Origin: Escherichia coli
Lineage (GTDB): Bacteria > Pseudomonadota > Gammaproteobacteria > Enterobacterales > Enterobacteriaceae
Direction: 5' to 3' (one strand)
DNA: 64,000 nt
Assembly (NCBI RefSeq): GCF_011045215.1
Contig: NZ_CP049201.1
Position numbers and translations under genes: made by a program. Of the stretch, positions 42,044-55,425 are shown one piece after another. Every line of letters begins with the position of its first letter. Position 1 is the stretch's first letter. The notes below the pieces were generated by a model. That model did no database searches. It was not told where the DNA came from and saw only the letters and a list, made by a program, of their open reading frames with translations.

Positions 42044-42119
42044 GCCGATATAGCTCAGTTGGTAGAGCAGCGCATTCGTAATGCGAAGGTCGTAGGTTCG
42101 ACTCCTATTATCGGCACCA
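42044..42119 (+). tRNA. thrW: tRNA-Thr (anticodon CGU)
   Basis: GCCGATATAGCTCAGTTGGTAGAGCAGCGCATTCGTAATGCGAAGGTCGTAGGTTCGACTCCTATTATCGGCACCA, cloverleaf with CGT anticodon and 3' CCA. Confidence 0.9.
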
Positions 42120-42133
42120 TTTAAATCAATAAG

Positions 42134-43297
42134 TTACACATCATTAGTACCTTCCTTATTTTTTGACTGGGACAAATTTGGGACCGATGGGTTCAGGATC
42201 GAGTCTATTTGCCGTGCGTGTTCGGTAAGGTGATTAGGTGCAAGGTGAGCATATCGACGAACCATTTCGATAGACTCCCAGCCTCCCATTTCCTGTAACA
42301 CTGACAACGGGACTCCGGCTTGAACCAGCCAACTTGCCCAGGTGTGTCTCAAGTCGTGAAATCTGAAATCATCAATACCAGCCCGTCTCAGCGCCGCTTT
42401 CCAGGCTGTGTTTGCGTCATACCGCATCTTCCTTACTGTTGGCGCTTTCGTTCCGTCTGGTTTGGTACAGCTTTCCTTGTACACAAATACCCAACGGTGA
42501 TGATTCCCGATTTGTTTTTTCAAAACGCGACATGCAGTATCATTCAGCGCAACGCCAATTGCGCGGTTTGATTTACTCTCTTCCGGGTTTATCCATGCCA
42601 CCCGGCGCTGCATGTCTATTTGTTGCCATTCAAGGTTGATGATGTTCGAGCGTCTTAAGCCTGTTGCCAGTGCAAATTCAACAACAGACTTTAATGGCTC
42701 CGGACATTCATCAATCAGCCTTTGTGCTTCATGGGGCTCCAGCCAGCGGATCCGTTTATTCTTTGGTTGAGGCACTTTAATAATTGGTGCCTTATCCAGC
42801 ATTTTCCATTCACGCTCTGCGGCTCTTAGTAGGGCCTTTATAAATGAAAGATGCGTAGCCTTCGTTGCAACGGACGCTGGTTTTGGCGTGTATTCTGGAA
42901 CAGGTTTCCCTTTTTTTCTGCATGCTTCTGCCCTGAGTCTCCAGTTTTCCTCATGACGCCGGTTCGTCATTTTCTGCATTGCTGAATAAATTTTTGATTC
43001 AGTAATGTCTCTTAGTTGCATTCCTGCGAAATGTTGAAGCCAGAATCCGATCCGGCTTTTGTCATCGTCCAGTGATTTTTTATGTGCTTTCTCTTCAAGC
43101 CACCTGACACACGCTTCCTCGAACGTTATATCAGGTATTTCACCAAGTTTGCTGACCCGCCATGCTTCAGCCTTTAGCTTGTCATGGAGTTCTGTCGCCT
43201 GCCTTTTGTCCTTTGTTCCAAGAGACTGTTTAAATCTTTTACCGTTCGGCAATGTGAAACTGGCGTACCATATTTCACCTCTGCGGAAGAGTGACAT
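42134..43297 (-). CDS. int: phage integrase (tyrosine recombinase, P22-like)
   Basis: 387 aa, C-terminal catalytic R..HxxR..Y region ([11 protein letters not shown]...RYAHL); adjacent to tRNA. Confidence 0.9.
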
Positions 43298-47168: not shown

Positions 47169-47843
47169 TTAGGCTTTGATTTTGTATCTTCTTGGTTTTC
47201 CTGAGAAAATCACTGTACCAATTATAGAGCAATTACCGTTGATCTTAATGTAAGGCTCAGGCCAGTTTGGGTTTAACGCTTTGAGATAACGCTGTGTCCC
47301 ATCTTCTATCAACCTTTTGAAGGTGGTTTCGCCTGTATCGTGCATCAATGCAATAACGTCGTCACCGTGGCAGGCAGGTACTTCAGGATCGACAAAAATC
47401 ATGTCTCCCGGGCGGTACTCATCAATCATTGAATCACCTATCACCCGCAAGATATAAGTCATTTCCCCACAGGGTACAGGGCAGGGATACGTTTCTGCTG
47501 TGCTCAAATCAACCTCAGAATATCCAACTTCTTTCCATGCTCCGGCCTGTACCCATGATATGACAGGGACTAATGTGATTTGTTTATTAGTGATTGAAAC
47601 ATCAGGTTTTTTTGTGATGTTCGTTGTCTGGTGTTCTTGATCGAGCCATCCGACAGGCAGGTCGAAACATTTTTCGATGTGTCGTGCCATGCTGTCACCG
47701 ATATTTTTAGTAGCACCATCTCCCATAAACCTGCTGGTCTGGGTTGGCTCGCGATCAATCATAGTGGCAAAGGAAGAATTCCCGCCAACACCATCTCTCA
47801 GTTTTCTGGCGTTAGACCGCCGGATGTCATGGATTGTTTTCAT
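47169..47843 (-). CDS. cI: phage repressor CI (HTH plus S24 LexA-like peptidase domain)
   Basis: 224 aa; C-terminal S24 domain with Ser (GDSM) and Lys; divergent from cro. Confidence 0.85.
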   Translation of the reverse strand: MKTIHDIRRSNARKLRDGVGGNSSFATMIDREPTQTSRFMGDGATKNIGDSMARHIEKCFDLPVGWLDQEHQTTNITKKPDVSITNKQITLVPVISWVQAGAWKEVGYSEVDLSTAETYPCPVPCGEMTYILRVIGDSMIDEYRPGDMIFVDPEVPACHGDDVIALMHDTGETTFKRLIEDGTQRYLKALNPNWPEPYIKINGNCSIIGTVIFSGKPRRYKIKA

Positions 47844-47933: not shown

Positions 47934-48134
47934 ATGAAAGCGTATTGGGACTCTTTAACCAAAGAACAGCAGGGCGAGTTGGCCGGAAAAGTTGGCTCAA
48001 CACCTGGCTACTTACGGCTGGTTTTCAATGGCTATAAAAAAGCCAGTTTTGTGCTGGCTAAAAAACTTGAGCAATGCACGTCAGGTGCAATTACGAAATC
48101 TGACTTAAGACCGGATATCTATCCGAAAGATTAG
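47934..48134 (+). CDS. cro: Cro-like repressor
   Basis: 67-aa ORF from MKAYWDSL, divergent from cI; the longer listed ORF overlaps cI antisense. Confidence 0.65.
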   Translation: MKAYWDSLTKEQQGELAGKVGSTPGYLRLVFNGYKKASFVLAKKLEQCTSGAITKSDLRPDIYPKD

Positions 48135-48165
48135 CAGAACACTTTCAATTTTTAACCACAGAACG

Positions 48166-48729
48166 ATGAGGCTAACCGTGGGTAAGCATCACTGGAAAAT
48201 AGAAAAACAGCCTGAGTGGTACGTGAAAGCTGTCAGAAAAACTATCGCGGCGTTGCCGGGTGGTTACGCTGAAGCGGCTGACTGGCTCGATGTAACAGAA
48301 AACGCTTTATTCAACCGCCTTCGTGCAGATGGCGATCAGATTTTCCCGCTGGGATGGGCAATGGTTTTACAGCGTGCTGGTGGCACTCACTTCATTGCTG
48401 ATGCTGTGGCGCAGTCTGCAAATGGCGTCTTTGTGTCTCTTCCTGACGTCGAGGATGTGGACAACGCCGATATCAACCAACGCCTGCTGGAAGTCATTGA
48501 ACAGATCGGCAGTTATTCAAAACAGATTCGTTCAGCAATTGAAGACGGTGTAGTGGAACCGCATGAGAAGACAGCAATTAACGACGAGCTGTACCTCTCA
48601 ATTTCGAAGCTGCAGGAGCATGCAGCACTGGTCTACAAAATTTTTTGCATTTCAGAAAGTAATGACGCCCGCGAGTGTGCAGCTCCGGGCGCCGTGGCGT
48701 GTCGTGACTGTGGAGAAACTAACGCATGA
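48166..48729 (+). CDS. phage regulatory protein (CII-like / YdaT-family position)
   Basis: 187 aa immediately after cro; product assignment by position only. Confidence 0.4.
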
Positions 48730-49073
48730 ACAGTTTAACAACACACTACCGTCGCTCGCAACTGATTGCGCTTCCTGTACCGGGTGGAAAAGCGAAGGTG
48801 GAGTATTGCTATGCAGTAAATGTACCAGGTGACAGGGAAATTGTAACCCACAGCTTTGCAGAGTGGGCTGTGGGTGATTTCAACCGGCAGAAGGAGACAG
48901 TCCTTTGCGACAAGTTAACCGCTGGTTCAAAGATCACTACGGAGTGCCCGTCAGAGTCATTCGTTGGGAGCCGGAAACACAACGTGTTATCTACCTCCGC
49001 GAAGGCTATGAGCATGAGTGCTTCAGCCCGCTCGAACAGTTTCGTCGTAAATTCAGGGAAATAGAGGTCGGTC

Positions 49074-50015
49074 ATGAGCACTAAATTAACCGGCTATGTA
49101 TGGGATGGTTGCGCTGCATCAGGCATGAAATTATCCAGCGTGGCAATTATGGCCCGCCTGGCTGATTTCAGTAATGACGAAGGTGTGTGCTGGCCATCAA
49201 TTGAAACCATTGCCCGCCAGATTGGCGCGGGAATGAGTACCGTCAGAACGGCTATCGCACGGCTGGAAGCAGAAGGCTGGTTAACGCGTAAGGCGCGTCG
49301 CCAGGGTAACCGCAATGCGTCGAATGTTTATCAGCTTAACGTTGCGAAGCTTCAGGCAGCGGCATTTTCTCAACTGTCAGATTCTGACCCGTCAAAATCT
49401 GACGCATCAAAATCTGACCCGTCAAAATTTGATGCGTCGAAATCTGGCAAAAAAGCGGGTTTTCACCCGTCAGAATCTGGCGGGGATCCGTCAGTAAAAT
49501 CAAAACATGATCCGTCAGATAAAAAAACTTCTCGTCCGGACGCTTCGCAACCGGACACGCAGACGGCTGAACAGGAGTTTTTAACTCGCCATCCTGATGC
49601 GGTTGTATTCAGCCCTAAAAAGCGCCAGTGGGGAACGCAGGATGATTTGACCTGCGCACAGTGGCTCTGGAAAAAAATCATCGCCCTGTACGAGCAGGCC
49701 GCCGAATGTGACGGCGAGGTGGTTCGTCCCAAAGAACCGAACTGGACAGCCTGGGCAAACGAAATTCGCCTGATGTGTGTGCAGGATGGTCGTACTCATA
49801 AACAAATCTGCGAGATGTACAGCCGCGTCAGTCGCGATCCGTTCTGGTGCCGTAACGTGCTCAGCCCGTCGAAGCTGCGGGAAAAATGGGATGAGCTTTC
49901 CCTGCGCTTATCGCCGTCCGTCAGCACGTACACCGAAAAACGCGAAGACCCGTACTTCAAAGCCAGTTACGACAACGTGGACTACAGCCAGATCCCGGCA
50001 GGATTCAGGGGGTGA
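49074..50015 (+). CDS. replication initiation protein (lambda O-like) with internal iteron-encoded repeats
   Basis: HTH N-terminus (GMSTVRTAIARLEAEGWLT), repeated SDPSKSDASKSDPSKFDASKS segment. Confidence 0.7.
   Translation: MSTKLTGYVWDGCAASGMKLSSVAIMARLADFSNDEGVCWPSIETIARQIGAGMSTVRTAIARLEAEGWLTRKARRQGNRNASNVYQLNVAKLQAAAFSQLSDSDPSKSDASKSDPSKFDASKSGKKAGFHPSESGGDPSVKSKHDPSDKKTSRPDASQPDTQTAEQEFLTRHPDAVVFSPKKRQWGTQDDLTCAQWLWKKIIALYEQAAECDGEVVRPKEPNWTAWANEIRLMCVQDGRTHKQICEMYSRVSRDPFWCRNVLSPSKLREKWDELSLRLSPSVSTYTEKREDPYFKASYDNVDYSQIPAGFRG
49375..49445. repeat. tandem about 18-bp iterons, candidate phage replication origin
   Basis: tcaaaatctgac(c/g)c(g/a) repeated 4 times inside the O-like gene. 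Confidence 0.5.
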
Positions 50016-50506
50016 GCATGAGTCTTTTGAATGACGTTCAGAAATTCATTGAAGCCCATCCGGGCTGTACTTCCGGAGATATTGCGGATGCTTTTGCCGG
50101 TTACTCACGGCAGCGCGTTCTGCAGTCAGCAAGCAAGTTACGTCAGAGTGGGCGTGTGGCTCACCGTTGTGAAGGAGATACACGCAGACATTTCCCGCGC
50201 CTGACTGAGAGAGCGCAGGAACCGGAACCACAACCAGTTCGTGAAACCAGACCTGTGCGCAATTTCTATGTCGGCACTAACGATCCCCGTGTGATTTTGT
50301 GCCTGACCCGCCAGGCGGAAGAACTGGAGTCCAGGGGCTTATACCGTCGTGCTGCAACCGTGTGGATGGCGGCATTCCGTGAAAGCCACTCCCAGCCAGA
50401 ACGAAACAATTTTCTGGCGCGTCGTGAGCGGTGCTTACGGAAAAGCAGCAAGCGCGCTGCATCGGGTGAAGAGTGGTATCTGTCAGGGAATTACGTGGGG
50501 GCTTAA
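50012..50506 (+). CDS. phage protein with PerC-like C-terminal domain
   Basis: AEELESRGLYRRAATVWMAAFRES resembles the PerC/Pch signature. Confidence 0.45.
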   Translation: MSMSLLNDVQKFIEAHPGCTSGDIADAFAGYSRQRVLQSASKLRQSGRVAHRCEGDTRRHFPRLTERAQEPEPQPVRETRPVRNFYVGTNDPRVILCLTRQAEELESRGLYRRAATVWMAAFRESHSQPERNNFLARRERCLRKSSKRAASGEEWYLSGNYVGA

Positions 50507-51159
50507 TGAGTAATAAATATTGCCAGGCGCTGGTGGAACTGCGGAACAAACCAGCCCATGAACTGAAGGAAGTGGGCGATCAGTGGCGCACGCCGGACAA
50601 CATTTTCTGGGGAATTAACACCCTGTTTGGCCCGTTTGTTCTGGATCTGTTCACTGACGGTGATAACGCCAAATGTGCCGCGTATTACACGGCGGAAGAC
50701 AACGCGCTGGCGCATGACTGGTCAGAACGTCTTGCGGAGCTTAAAGGTGCTGCCTTTGGTAATCCCCCATACAGCCGCGCCAGTCAGCATGAGGGGCAAT
50801 ACATCACCGGCATGCGTTACATCATGAAACATGCCAGTGCCATGCGTGATAAGGGCGGGCGCTATGTTTTCCTGATCAAAGCTGCCACCAGCGAAGTGTG
50901 GTGGCCGGAAGATGCAGATCATATTGCTTTTATTCGCGGGCGTATTGGTTTTGAACTGCCTGTCTGGTTTATCCCGAAAGACGAGAAGCAGGTACCGACA
51001 GGAGCTTTTTTCGCTGGTGCTATTGCTGTTTTTGACAAGACCTGGAAGGGACCGGCAATCAGCTACATCGGGCGCGATGAACTTGAGGCATGTGGTGAGG
51101 CGTTTCTGGCGCAGGTTCGCCAGCAGGCGGAAAAACTGGTCAGGGAGATGGCGGCATGA
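50506..51159 (+). CDS. phage DNA N6-adenine methyltransferase (Dam-like)
   Basis: NPPY motif (FGNPPYSRA); start at MSNKYCQ. Confidence 0.75.
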   Translation: MSNKYCQALVELRNKPAHELKEVGDQWRTPDNIFWGINTLFGPFVLDLFTDGDNAKCAAYYTAEDNALAHDWSERLAELKGAAFGNPPYSRASQHEGQYITGMRYIMKHASAMRDKGGRYVFLIKAATSEVWWPEDADHIAFIRGRIGFELPVWFIPKDEKQVPTGAFFAGAIAVFDKTWKGPAISYIGRDELEACGEAFLAQVRQQAEKLVREMAA

Positions 51160-51482
51160 CGACGTTAACTCAATGCCAGCAGCAGGTGCTGGATATGCTG
51201 ATTTCTTATCAGAAAGAACGTGGCTTCCCGCCAACCAATCAGGAGGTGGCAACCATGCTGGGATACCGTTCGGTGAATGCAGCGGTGGAGCATCTTCGCG
51301 CACTGGAGAAAAAAGGCGTCATCACGATAAAGCGTGGCGTGGCCCGGGGGATAACGCTTCATACCGCGGTGAAGGACGACGACAGCGAGGCGGTCGGGAT
51401 TATCCGCGCACTGCTTGCCGGTGAGGAAAACGCAAGGCTGCGTGCAACCCACTGGTTACATGAGAGGGACCTGAAAGTATGA
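51156..51482 (+). CDS. LexA-like DNA-binding domain protein
   Basis: N-terminus resembles LexA winged helix (QQQVLDMLISYQKERGFPPTNQEVATMLGYRSVNAAVEHLRALEKKGVI). Confidence 0.6.
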   Translation: MTTLTQCQQQVLDMLISYQKERGFPPTNQEVATMLGYRSVNAAVEHLRALEKKGVITIKRGVARGITLHTAVKDDDSEAVGIIRALLAGEENARLRATHWLHERDLKV

Positions 51483-51868
51483 AGCTGATCCTGCCTTTTC
51501 CGCCCAGCGTGAACACGTACTGGCGACACCCCAACAAAGGGGCGTTTGCTGGTAAGAGCCTGATAAGCGCGGCGGGGCGAAAATTCCAGAGCGCGGCGTG
51601 CGCAGCAATAGTTGAGCAGTTACGTCGTCTGCCGAAACCAACGTCGGCACCTGCTTCAGTGGAGATCGTGTTGTTTCCTCCGGATAACCGGATCCGCGAT
51701 CTGGACAACTATAACAAGGCGCTGTTTGACGCCCTGACCCACGCGGGTGTGTGGGAAGACGACAGTCAGGTGAAAAGAATGCTGGTGGAGTGGGGGCCGG
51801 TTATCCCGGAAGGGAAGGTCGAGATCACTATCAGTAAGTACGAGAAAACGGCGGGTGCAGCCGCCTGA
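51479..51868 (+). CDS. rusA: Holliday junction resolvase RusA
   Basis: 129 aa, conserved DLDNYNKALFDAL region. Confidence 0.85.
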   Translation: MKLILPFPPSVNTYWRHPNKGAFAGKSLISAAGRKFQSAACAAIVEQLRRLPKPTSAPASVEIVLFPPDNRIRDLDNYNKALFDALTHAGVWEDDSQVKRMLVEWGPVIPEGKVEITISKYEKTAGAAA

Positions 51869-52686: not shown

Positions 52687-53682
52687 GTGACCGTGAGAGC
52701 ACTACTGACCCCTGAAATTGCCCCGCGTATGGGGATCGTATTGTTCAGACCAGGTTCAGAGCTGATGCCCCTGTTTATGCAGGGGCGTGTACTGCTGGAG
52801 CCTGAGCCGGAACGTTATTCATCTTTCGCCAGTGGTGCCGTTCCCGCGGCATCACAACCGCTGGCGGATGATCCTGCTGTTCGGGCCGTGTTCCGCAATG
52901 AGGCAGTGATCCGTCGTGCTGGTGGCGTGGAATGTCTTGAAAGCTGGTTACTTCGTGAAAAAGGCTGCCAGTGGCCTCATTCCGACTGGCACAGCGAGAA
53001 CATGACCACAATGCGACACGCTCCGGGCGCAATCCGTCTGTGCTGGCACTGTGATAACCAGCTGCGCGATCAGTTCACGGAACGGCTGGAATCAATGGCA
53101 ACGGATAACTGTGCCCGCTGGGTGTTGTCTGTTGTGCGTCGGGATCTCGGTTTTGATGATAGTCACGTTGTGACAATGCCGGAACTGTGCTGGTGGCTGA
53201 TTCGTAATGACCTGGCGGATGCCTTACCGGAAAGTGCAGCCCGTAAGGCACTGAGATTACCAAAGCCTGTTGTGCCGTCTGTCACCCGGGAAAGTGACCT
53301 TGTGCCTTCGGTTCCTGCCACCAGCATCATCCAGGATAAGGCAAAAAAGGTGCTGGCGCTGAAAGTGGATCCGGAGTCGCCGGAGTCTTTTATGTTACGC
53401 CCAAAACGTCGCCGCTGGGTTAATGAGAAGTACACGCGCTGGGTTAAGACACAGCCGTGTGCATGTTGTGGAAAGCCCGCTGATGATCCCCACCACCTGA
53501 TAGGCCACGGTCAGGGGGGAATGGGTACAAAAGCGCATGACCTCTTTGTGTTGCCTTTGTGCAGAAAGCATCACGACGAGCTGCATGCGGATACCGTGGC
53601 ATTTGAAGAGAAGTATGGCTCCCAGCTGGAGCTGATATTTCGTTTTATCGATCGTGCGCTGGCAATTGGCGTGCTGGCCTGA
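52687..53682 (+). CDS. phage protein, DUF968-like (Cys/His-rich)
   Basis: C-terminal CxxC...HH...PLCRKHHDELH pattern. Confidence 0.5.
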   Translation: MTVRALLTPEIAPRMGIVLFRPGSELMPLFMQGRVLLEPEPERYSSFASGAVPAASQPLADDPAVRAVFRNEAVIRRAGGVECLESWLLREKGCQWPHSDWHSENMTTMRHAPGAIRLCWHCDNQLRDQFTERLESMATDNCARWVLSVVRRDLGFDDSHVVTMPELCWWLIRNDLADALPESAARKALRLPKPVVPSVTRESDLVPSVPATSIIQDKAKKVLALKVDPESPESFMLRPKRRRWVNEKYTRWVKTQPCACCGKPADDPHHLIGHGQGGMGTKAHDLFVLPLCRKHHDELHADTVAFEEKYGSQLELIFRFIDRALAIGVLA

Positions 53683-53696
53683 TTTGGTGGAGAAAG

Positions 53697-54065
53697 TTGA
53701 TGCGTGATATTCAGATGGTTCTTGAGCGTTGGGGAGCATGGGCGGCGAGTGATAGTTCAGGCGTTGACTATTCACCTATAGCTGCTGGGTTTAAGGGACT
53801 TCTTCCCTATACCAGCAAGAAACGCTTGGCTTGTTCGGATAGTGATGCATTAATTATTGAAGGTTGTCTTGCTCGTCTAAAGCAAAAAAGACCTTATGAG
53901 CATTCGCTTCTTGTGGCACATTATTTATACAGAATATCCAAGCGTAAGATTGCAAAGGCGCGTGGAAAGGATGAGAAATTGATACGTATAGAAATACAGC
54001 TAGCCGAAGGATTTATTGATGGCTGCCTTTCCATGCTAGATCTAACATTAGATTTGGACGTTTAA
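53697..54065 (+). CDS. Q: late-gene antitermination protein Q
   Basis: 122 aa with LERWGAWA motif; positioned before the lysis genes. Confidence 0.65.
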   Translation: MMRDIQMVLERWGAWAASDSSGVDYSPIAAGFKGLLPYTSKKRLACSDSDALIIEGCLARLKQKRPYEHSLLVAHYLYRISKRKIAKARGKDEKLIRIEIQLAEGFIDGCLSMLDLTLDLDV

Positions 54066-54093: not shown

Positions 54094-55425
54094 TTACTGG
54101 ATGAATGACATTTGATTAATATATTTTATCAATAACTCTCTGGGTGTAGTACTCCAAAAATTTAGGTGTTCATAATCAGTATAAACATTGGTGAATTTTT
54201 TAAGTTCTTCATCACTTTTAGGGGCAAATCGCTCATTAAGAGTAATACTGTCTTTAATTATTCCGAAGAATACAATAGATATTTCAGGAATTTGCGATCT
54301 TCTCTCATAAGAATAAGGTATTTCTTTTATGTTAAGCAGATCTGCTAAATGAGATATAGATTCTGCGGTAATTTCTTGTTTTAGTTTTTCCTTGTCACCA
54401 AAGCAATGTATGAAGACAGCTACGACAAAGATCTTATTTATTAAAGGATCACTGCTTTTGTACTCATCGTCGTTTAATAGTTGAAAAATGTTAAGATTGC
54501 GTGAAAAAGTTTGTGTTTCACGTAAGGATAAGTTGGTTCGTTGAATTAAATCACGGATAAATCTACCAGATAAACTATTAATTTCATTTAATGATTTTGT
54601 CTTGTCTACAAGGTAATTCCAATATATAACAGATGTTTTACATACGACGTGACCATTTATTAAACATGTGTCTGGAAGCGTGATGGTATATTTTATAAAC
54701 TTGTCAAGATACTTTTGTGAGTTAATACTATAACCATAAATATGATTTATCGATGCTTTTAATTGTTCTGTGTTTGTAACTAAAATAAAAAAGACATTAT
54801 TGATGTCAAAAATGTGTTTTATTGTTTCAATGACATTTGTTGAAAAACTCGGCTTACATCGGTCTAATTCATCAATTATAATTACTATCTTTTGACTTTC
54901 TGAAATGCTTTCGATGCAAGATTTAAGTGAATTTATGTTTTTCTCTGATTCCATATGGTCTTCAAGCAAATTTTCAATAGTCCCATCTATTGCTGCATTG
55001 CTTGCTTTCTTCATCGCATCTTGGAATTCTTCGGAAACTTCACTAGCCTCCTGTCGTAAAAACCAACCTGCACCAGCTTTTAGTACCGTTTTTAAACCAA
55101 AGCGAATTGCAGGAAGAGATCTCTTAATGAAGTGTTGTTTTTCTTCCTCAGGTAAAATGCTGGCAATTGCAGAGGTTATGAGAAGTAATGGAGATTCTGC
55201 ATGATCCCCTTTAAAGGCATCAATATAAACAACTTTAGATTCAGTTTCTTGCTCAATAATGAGATTTTTCAGTTTGATACTAAATTCTGTTTTCCCTGTT
55301 CCCCATGCGCCGTCTATTACCAGTGGTGAAATGTCTGCCTCTGGTTTTAGCAACTTGATGATATTTTCAGCGATGTTTCTGCGTTGGAACTCGTCACGTT
55401 CAGTGAAAGATAGTGTATCTAACAT
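54094..55425 (-). CDS. KAP-family P-loop NTPase (prophage cargo; candidate defense protein)
   Basis: 443 aa; Walker A DGAWGTGKT, Walker B IIIDELDR; AT-rich; antisense to the late operon. Confidence 0.75.
   Translation of the reverse strand: MLDTLSFTERDEFQRRNIAENIIKLLKPEADISPLVIDGAWGTGKTEFSIKLKNLIIEQETESKVVYIDAFKGDHAESPLLLITSAIASILPEEEKQHFIKRSLPAIRFGLKTVLKAGAGWFLRQEASEVSEEFQDAMKKASNAAIDGTIENLLEDHMESEKNINSLKSCIESISESQKIVIIIDELDRCKPSFSTNVIETIKHIFDINNVFFILVTNTEQLKASINHIYGYSINSQKYLDKFIKYTITLPDTCLINGHVVCKTSVIYWNYLVDKTKSLNEINSLSGRFIRDLIQRTNLSLRETQTFSRNLNIFQLLNDDEYKSSDPLINKIFVVAVFIHCFGDKEKLKQEITAESISHLADLLNIKEIPYSYERRSQIPEISIVFFGIIKDSITLNERFAPKSDEELKKFTNVYTDYEHLNFWSTTPRELLIKYINQMSFIQ

Follow-up and report, generated by a model that had tools for sequence, protein, structure and literature searches.

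An intact phage N6-adenine methyltransferase gene of the SfV type in the early operon of an Escherichia coli lambdoid prophage

Introduction

What is a DNA adenine methyltransferase gene doing in the early operon of an Escherichia coli prophage? The benefit of a second GATC methylase in a host that has Dam is not obvious. The question is raised by a gene in a 64,000-nucleotide stretch of E. coli DNA (contig NZ_CP049201.1, assembly GCF_011045215.1; hereafter, the window). A first-pass annotation, made from the letters of the window, had called the gene a Dam-like, phage-borne orphan methylase and had offered two functions for it: protection of the phage genome from host restriction, or a change of host methylation in the lysogen. 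Here, we follow up that annotation with profile searches, structure prediction and genome comparisons, and we ask which of the two functions better fits the anatomy of the locus.

Results

Identity and integrity of the methylase gene

The methylase is encoded by an intact, uninterrupted 217-codon ORF on the + strand (ATG at 50506, TGA at 51157-51159), just where the first-pass annotation had placed it. The mechanical ORF list starts the same gene at GTG 50473, while ATG 50506 is the start chosen in RefSeq (WP_001355692.1) and in K-12 yfdM, and a GGGGG Shine-Dalgarno-like run lies directly 5' of it.

Every profile library that was searched supports the reading of a phage-borne orphan N6-adenine methyltransferase of the NPPY type, as does near-identity to the dam genes of phages SfV and SfII. 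Pfam PF05869, "DNA N-6-adenine-methyltransferase (Dam)", matches with E 9.7e-46 and 156 bits (cut-off 28.1), the window methylase covering positions 3-167 of the 169 in the profile. NCBIfam TIGR01712, the equivalog model "phage N-6-adenine-methyltransferase", matches over its whole length (profile 1-165 of 165) at 256.5 bits, against a curated cut-off of 97.05 bits, and this score of 256 bits is about that of the VT2-type enzyme (266 bits). PHROG 111, "DNA methyltransferase", is matched with E 7e-90, and the 217-position PADLOC model MTase_II is matched end to end with E 3e-158. The Pfam search gives PF05869 only; PF02086, the classical Dam or D12 family of E. coli Dam, T4 Dam and DpnM, is not matched. 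From these profile matches, the window gene is almost certainly a phage N6-adenine methyltransferase of the PF05869/TIGR01712 family, that is, the family of the HP1, T1 and VT-2 Dam enzymes.

Three sets of codons carry the conserved core of the protein:

50578..50595, + strand: N-terminal family signature D25-x-W27-x-T29-P30, invariant in an alignment of four proteins and nearly so in 35 homologues
50641..50646, + strand: L46-D47, at the end of predicted strand 44-47 (conservation; AlphaFold model)
50761..50772, + strand: catalytic motif IV, N86-P-P-Y89 (four-protein alignment; 35 homologues)

All of the nearly invariant residues of the family (D25, W27, T29, P30, D47, N54 and N86-S90) are kept in the window methylase. 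The stretch N86-P-P-Y89-S90 does not vary between the window methylase and the Dam proteins of the VT2 type, T1 and HP1, and its conservation in the 35 homologues is at least 90%. D47 is the sole fully invariant column in this set of homologues; we suggest that D47 is the acidic residue that contacts SAM. The NPPY motif claimed in the first-pass annotation is thus present at residues 86-89, it is not mutated, and the catalytic residues are intact.

An AlphaFold model of the methylase, built with the 35 homologues as input, reached a pLDDT of 95.7 and a pTM of 0.91. The predicted structure has a class-I Rossmann-type SAM methyltransferase fold, with NPPY placed directly after predicted strand 82-85. 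The best fold match of the model is PCIF1, and MT-A70 structures superpose poorly on it (TM below 0.2). A phmmer search of PDB sequences with the methylase gave zero matches even at E <= 1, and to judge from that search there is no solved structure for a member of the PF05869 family. Host Dam, T4 Dam and DpnM (PF02086, alpha class) share with the window methylase a Rossmann fold with a (D/N)PPY loop and probably the same reaction (m6A, probably at GATC), but the likeness is at the level of the fold only, with 9-12% identity.

The prophage and its early-right operon

From chromosomal DNA on the proA side, the window runs into a prophage at tRNA-Thr(CGU). The features of the prophage that bear on the methylase are as follows:

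42044-42119, + strand: tRNA-Thr(CGU), left end of the prophage (ARAGORN)
42134-43297, - strand: tyrosine integrase, left end of the prophage (PF00589, E 3.5e-48)
47169..47843, - strand: CI-type prophage repressor with a Peptidase_S24 domain (PF00717, E 1.5e-26)
48166..48729, + strand: CII-like activator, an early gene of the rightward operon (PF06892, E 1e-13; PHROG 101)
49074..50015, + strand: O-like replication initiator (PHROG 391, E 2e-135)
50012..50506, + strand: yfdN-like gene with a PerC domain, upstream neighbour of the methylase (PF06069, E 8e-9; yfdN in RefSeq neighbours)
50506..51159, + strand: methylase, 217 aa, SfV-type "dam" and intact form of K-12 yfdM (PF05869, TIGR01712, identity)
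51156..51482, + strand: LexA-type protein of 108 aa with a DNA-binding domain only, downstream neighbour of the methylase (PF01726, E 3e-19)
51479..51868, + strand: RusA Holliday-junction resolvase (PF05866, E 6e-15)
from 51888, + strand: KilA-N gene (profile search)
52687..53682, + strand: DUF968/HNH-type protein (P1 Ref-like) of the nin region (PF06147, E 3.5e-81)
53697..54065, + strand: antiterminator Q, end of the early-right operon (PF06530, E 2e-51)

The repressor gene is divergent from the operon that carries the methylase, and this operon runs rightward in the order cro-like HTH, CII-like, small ORF, O-like, yfdN-like, methylase, LexA-like, rusA, KilA-N, DUF968/HNH and Q. ETEC H10407 has a prophage at the same chromosomal site, by proA, with the same gene order and an equivalent XRE-family repressor. 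The host element is an SfV-like lambdoid prophage at tRNA-Thr. With an O-like initiator upstream (49074-50015) and RusA downstream (51479-51868), the earlier description of the locus as a replication and recombination region was well founded.

The methylase is translationally coupled to both of its neighbours: the TAA stop of the yfdN-like gene overlaps the methylase ATG (TAATG, 50504-50508), and the methylase TGA overlaps the ATG of the LexA-like gene (ATGA, 51156-51159). No promoter-like site was found at 48000-50506 on the + strand by a weak consensus scan, whose overall hit count was not above chance.

The absence of an adjacent restriction gene extends to the whole prophage part of the window (42.1-64 kb), as judged by Pfam, PHROG, PADLOC and the H10407 comparison. 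PADLOC found no restriction endonuclease among the proteins scanned, and homologous loci are also without one. The neighbours of the methylase are all otherwise identified, as PerC-like, LexA-DBD, RusA, KilA-N, DUF968 and Q proteins, and the methylase is in this sense an orphan.

Two neighbours were considered as partners and rejected. The LexA-DBD gene is not an obligate partner of the methylase, since it is absent beside homologues with 70-72% identity (in phage LLS and in an NCBI assembly contig) that likewise follow directly on the replication genes; gene comparison points to the pairing of methylase and LexA-like gene as a recent module and not a conserved pair. The DUF968/HNH gene was examined as a hidden restriction partner, with L005:4801-5739, L008:4379-5380 and L010:3925-4500 as the loci compared with the window. 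In diverged phages, it again follows the methylase by one or two genes. However, the same family adjoins Q in the K-12 prophage Qin, where a methylase annotation is absent, and it has zero PADLOC match. Its recurrence near the methylase probably reflects nin-region synteny rather than a functional pair.

Three other features of the operon and its surroundings were observed in passing. The LexA-like protein (51156-51482) lacks an S24 peptidase domain in Pfam searches and may be a non-cleavable SOS-box binder. Within the O-like gene, the 15-bp unit TCTGACCCGTCAAAA is present in 4.3 tandem copies at 49383-49446 on the + strand, where it encodes a linker of the DPSKSDASKS type; by analogy with lambda, this iteron-like repeat may be the phage replication origin inside the initiator gene. 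Between antiterminator Q and the holin, at 54094-55425 on the - strand, lies a gene for a KAP-family P-loop NTPase, which has a PADLOC match to the candidate defence family PDC-S20 (E 9e-177) and weaker matches to PifA and QatA. This slot between Q and the holin in lambdoid phages carries morons such as stx.

Copies, distribution and selection

At the DNA level, the window methylase is 100% identical to the gene for WP_001355692.1 ("phage N-6-adenine-methyltransferase") of ETEC H10407 and many other E. coli, and to its counterpart in phage vB_EcoS-569R4. Identity to dam (orf41) of the Shigella flexneri serotype-converting phages SfV and SfII is 99.4% at the DNA level, and mEp460 and several Stx2a and Stx2c phages are at 98-99%. 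The dam gene of SfV and SfII is the same gene with the same neighbours, yfdN-like upstream and LexA-like downstream, and we see no difference of substance from the window copy. The surrounding prophage modules are mosaic; no genome matched the whole 25-kb flank, the best coverage being 91%.

Of the 5426 complete E. coli genomes searched, 2119 (about 39%) have a DNA match to the methylase, with at least 80% coverage in 1724. In a large protein collection, at least 1000 contigs encode exactly this protein. In a phage collection, 35 of the 42 matching records are 95-99% identical to the methylase in DNA; at the protein level, only 5 records fall in the 95-99% band and 37 are at 99% or above. Since the DNA differs more than the protein in these records, most of the substitutions must be synonymous, and on these comparisons the methylase appears to be under purifying selection. 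The methylase is already known and correctly named in RefSeq, and it is an ordinary prophage gene.

The K-12 YfdM remnant

K-12 YfdM (b2356, cryptic prophage CPS-53; L007:8113-8388) has 91 aa, the first 89 of which are 100% identical to the methylase, and it terminates just past NPPY; the corresponding stretch of the window is 50506-50772. The C-terminal half of the catalytic fold is therefore missing from YfdM, whereas the window copy has its full length of 217 aa. In K-12, yfdN adjoins yfdM, as it does the methylase in the window. On this alignment, the window gene is the intact form of yfdM, and K-12 yfdM is its N-terminal stump.

The wider family, fusion proteins and mislabelled records

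An exhaustive HMMER scan of 1.84 billion cluster representatives returned 1497 proteins at E <= 0.001, 97 of them at E <= 1e-30. Some relatives with 67-75% identity are fused to other domains, namely C5-cytosine DNA methylase domains (P0008, P0010 and P0015) or PAPS-reductase-like domains (P0011 and P0025), and the fusion domains are found on either side of the Dam domain. The long relatives P0020, P0026, P0035, P0044 and P0050 (469-599 aa) have C-terminal extensions without a Pfam match. The C5-methylase fusions support a DNA substrate for the family and a role in multi-target DNA-modification modules.

The fusions also bear on database labels. The RefSeq phage records NC_003444.1 (SfV), NC_021857.1 (SfII) and NC_019716.1 (mEp460) call the methylase "phosphoadenosine phosphosulfate reductase". 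The methylase matches PHROG 33262 at profile positions 283-492 of 495 only, and the wrong label probably arose because this PHROG was built on fusion proteins of PAPS reductase and Dam. The mislabelling of SfV-type dam genes in RefSeq phage records is a modest point of practical value.

Comparison with characterised Dam-family enzymes

We aligned the methylase with the VT2/933W-type enzyme (from phage PA50, L004:2986-3510), T1 Dam (L002:39024-39734) and HP1 Dam (L003:9166-9684). All four proteins pass TIGR01712. The methylase is 27% identical to the VT2-type enzyme, 23% to T1 Dam and 25% to HP1 Dam, and these three are 31-36% identical among themselves. M.EcoVT2Dam (of VT2-Sa/933W-type Stx phages), T1 Dam and HP1 Dam belong to the same family as the window methylase, share DxWxTP, D47 and NPPYS with it and, like it, are orphans in early or replication regions of phage genomes. 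The window methylase is longer, with 217 aa against 175 aa in VT2 Dam and 173 aa in HP1 Dam, and differs from the three enzymes in about 10 extra residues after NPPYS, an insertion at about 160-175 and a long C-terminal helix. These insertions of the SfV clade and its C-terminal helix could alter target choice.

M.EcoVT2Dam targets GATC (PMC6602927), and M.EcoT1Dam modifies GATC (PMC4996451); PMC7556043 cites the papers in which VT-2 and HP1 dam were first cloned. M.Btr190III, from a Bibersteinia trehalosi prophage, is 35% identical to M.EcoT1Dam and methylated GATC with marked off-target activity when cloned (PMC4996451). It resembles the window methylase in being an orphan carried by a prophage and a relative of T1 Dam, and it was active when cloned and apparently silent in the lysogen (PMC4996451). 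It differs from the window methylase in its host, its distant sequence and its documented off-target activity beyond GATC. M.EcoGV is listed as a GATC enzyme of an O104:H4 prophage. Our literature search found no measured specificity for a close relative (above about 50% identity) of the SfV-type clade. Identity to the characterised enzymes is only 23-27%, and it is for this reason by analogy that we infer a target; we lean towards GATC, possibly recognised with relaxed fidelity.

Several other enzymes were considered and set aside. M.EcoGIX is plasmid-borne according to the literature and is not a prophage enzyme. M.EcoMIV, the "Dam homolog" of an ST131 prophage, is a PF02086 protein and hence of a different family. 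The non-specific methylases Hia5, Hin1523 and Nma1821 are related to the D12 Dam class and not to PF05869 (PMC3299994). M.EcoPA8orf6770P, the rRNA methyltransferase of a Stx prophage, is an MT-A70 protein with DPPW (PMC10810198), where the window protein has NPPY and belongs to PF05869.

Under a second-order Markov model, the observed/expected ratio of GATC is 0.64 in the chromosomal flank (1-42043), 0.87 in the prophage (42120-64000) and 1.01 in the early-right operon. GATC is thus neither enriched nor depleted in the prophage, and its frequency carries no information about the specificity of the enzyme.

Discussion

The methylase of the window is an intact, conserved gene of known family, it lies within the early-right operon, and it is without a restriction partner. 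Its position in the operon makes it quite probable that the enzyme is expressed in the lytic phase: the gene would be off as long as the CI-type repressor stays bound, and it would be expressed along with the replication genes upon induction or infection. The target adenine would then be flipped into the NPPY pocket, and a methyl group would be moved from SAM to N6 of duplex DNA. Lambda DNA from lytic growth is only partially Dam-methylated, host Dam being limiting. An additional methylase could allow rapidly replicating phage DNA to be packaged fully methylated. Full methylation would shield the phage from restriction enzymes whose GATC-containing sites are cleaved when unmethylated, and it would mark phage DNA uniformly for the host systems that read GATC. 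We therefore consider it likely, taking the explanation as a whole, that the gene encodes a lytic-phase, SAM-dependent DNA N6-adenine methylase, most likely for GATC, whose activity would benefit the packaged phage DNA.

Of the two functions offered in the first-pass annotation, phage self-protection fits the anatomy of the locus, as long as it is placed in lytic growth, while a change of host methylation in the lysogen is disfavoured. For the latter, the methylase would have to act as a lysogenic-conversion factor, expressed in the lysogen and altering host methylation, gene regulation or prophage stability. An antiserum against lysogen cultures of phage Phi24B did recognise its VT2-type dam product, and the authors propose that this product may supplement host Dam (PMC3342100); some expression of the methylase in lysogen populations is possible for this reason. 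Stable 933W lysogeny is said to need host Dam in work that PMC3342100 cites, and an unrelated prophage methyltransferase modulates spontaneous induction (PMC10810198). Nevertheless, the window gene sits in a repressor-controlled early operon, joined to both neighbours by overlapping start and stop codons, with no intergenic gap and no promoter-like site that would serve it alone. SMRT or RT-PCR work on other prophage methylases found them inactive in the lysogen (PMC4659465, PMC4996451, PMC3299994). Moreover, host Dam methylates 99.9% of GATC sites (PMC6602927) and would mask any GATC activity of the prophage enzyme. Taken together, these points make lysogenic conversion very unlikely. We give even less weight to the idea that the enzyme acts on RNA and that the label "DNA methylase" is an annotation artefact. 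The PCIF1 fold match, and the MT-A70 enzyme of a Stx prophage that methylates 16S rRNA with a partner protein (PMC10810198), could be taken in its favour, but the methylase differs from MT-A70/DPPW enzymes in both family and motif, members of its own family methylate DNA in vivo, and its relatives are fused to DNA methylases; an RNA substrate is most improbable.

A more serious alternative is that the enzyme is a DNA m6A methylase with a non-GATC motif or strongly relaxed specificity, which would provide broad anti-restriction in the manner of Hia5 or M.EcoGII. The methylase has only 23-27% identity to GATC enzymes and insertions that are its clade's own, and a redundant GATC activity would make little obvious sense in a Dam+ host. 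The family member M.Btr190III shows substantial off-target methylation (PMC4996451), and fusions to C5-methylase and PAPS-reductase-like domains are typical of multi-target anti-restriction modules. However, all four characterised members of PF05869/TIGR01712 target GATC despite being only 31-36% identical, which suggests that GATC is ancestral, and the window methylase passes the equivalog model TIGR01712 by a wide margin. The known non-specific enzymes come from other families, Hia5 being related to the D12 Dam class (PMC3299994). On balance, we regard this alternative as unlikely. It is slightly less likely still that the SfV-type clade in particular has a different or relaxed target, or that its enzyme cooperates with the LexA-DBD product or another phage factor.

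As a discovery, the methylase matters little: thousands of E. coli and Shigella assemblies carry identical copies, and cloning of its family dates back more than 20 years. That K-12 yfdM is an N-terminal stump does bear on published claims of YfdM methylase action, among them the helper effect on phage SW1 that was ascribed to K-12 YfdM as a "putative Dam methylase" (bioRxiv 10.1101/413146). More broadly, it is worth noting that this clade is extremely common, yet its identity to the GATC enzymes that have been characterised is only 23-27%, and our literature search gave no measured target for it. Should the clade prove to have a different or relaxed target, or to work with such a partner, an anti-defence or regulatory function of a very widespread E. 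coli prophage gene would so far have been overlooked. This could account both for the retention of a second methylase in Dam+ hosts and for the phage phenotype reported for the K-12 yfdM stump.
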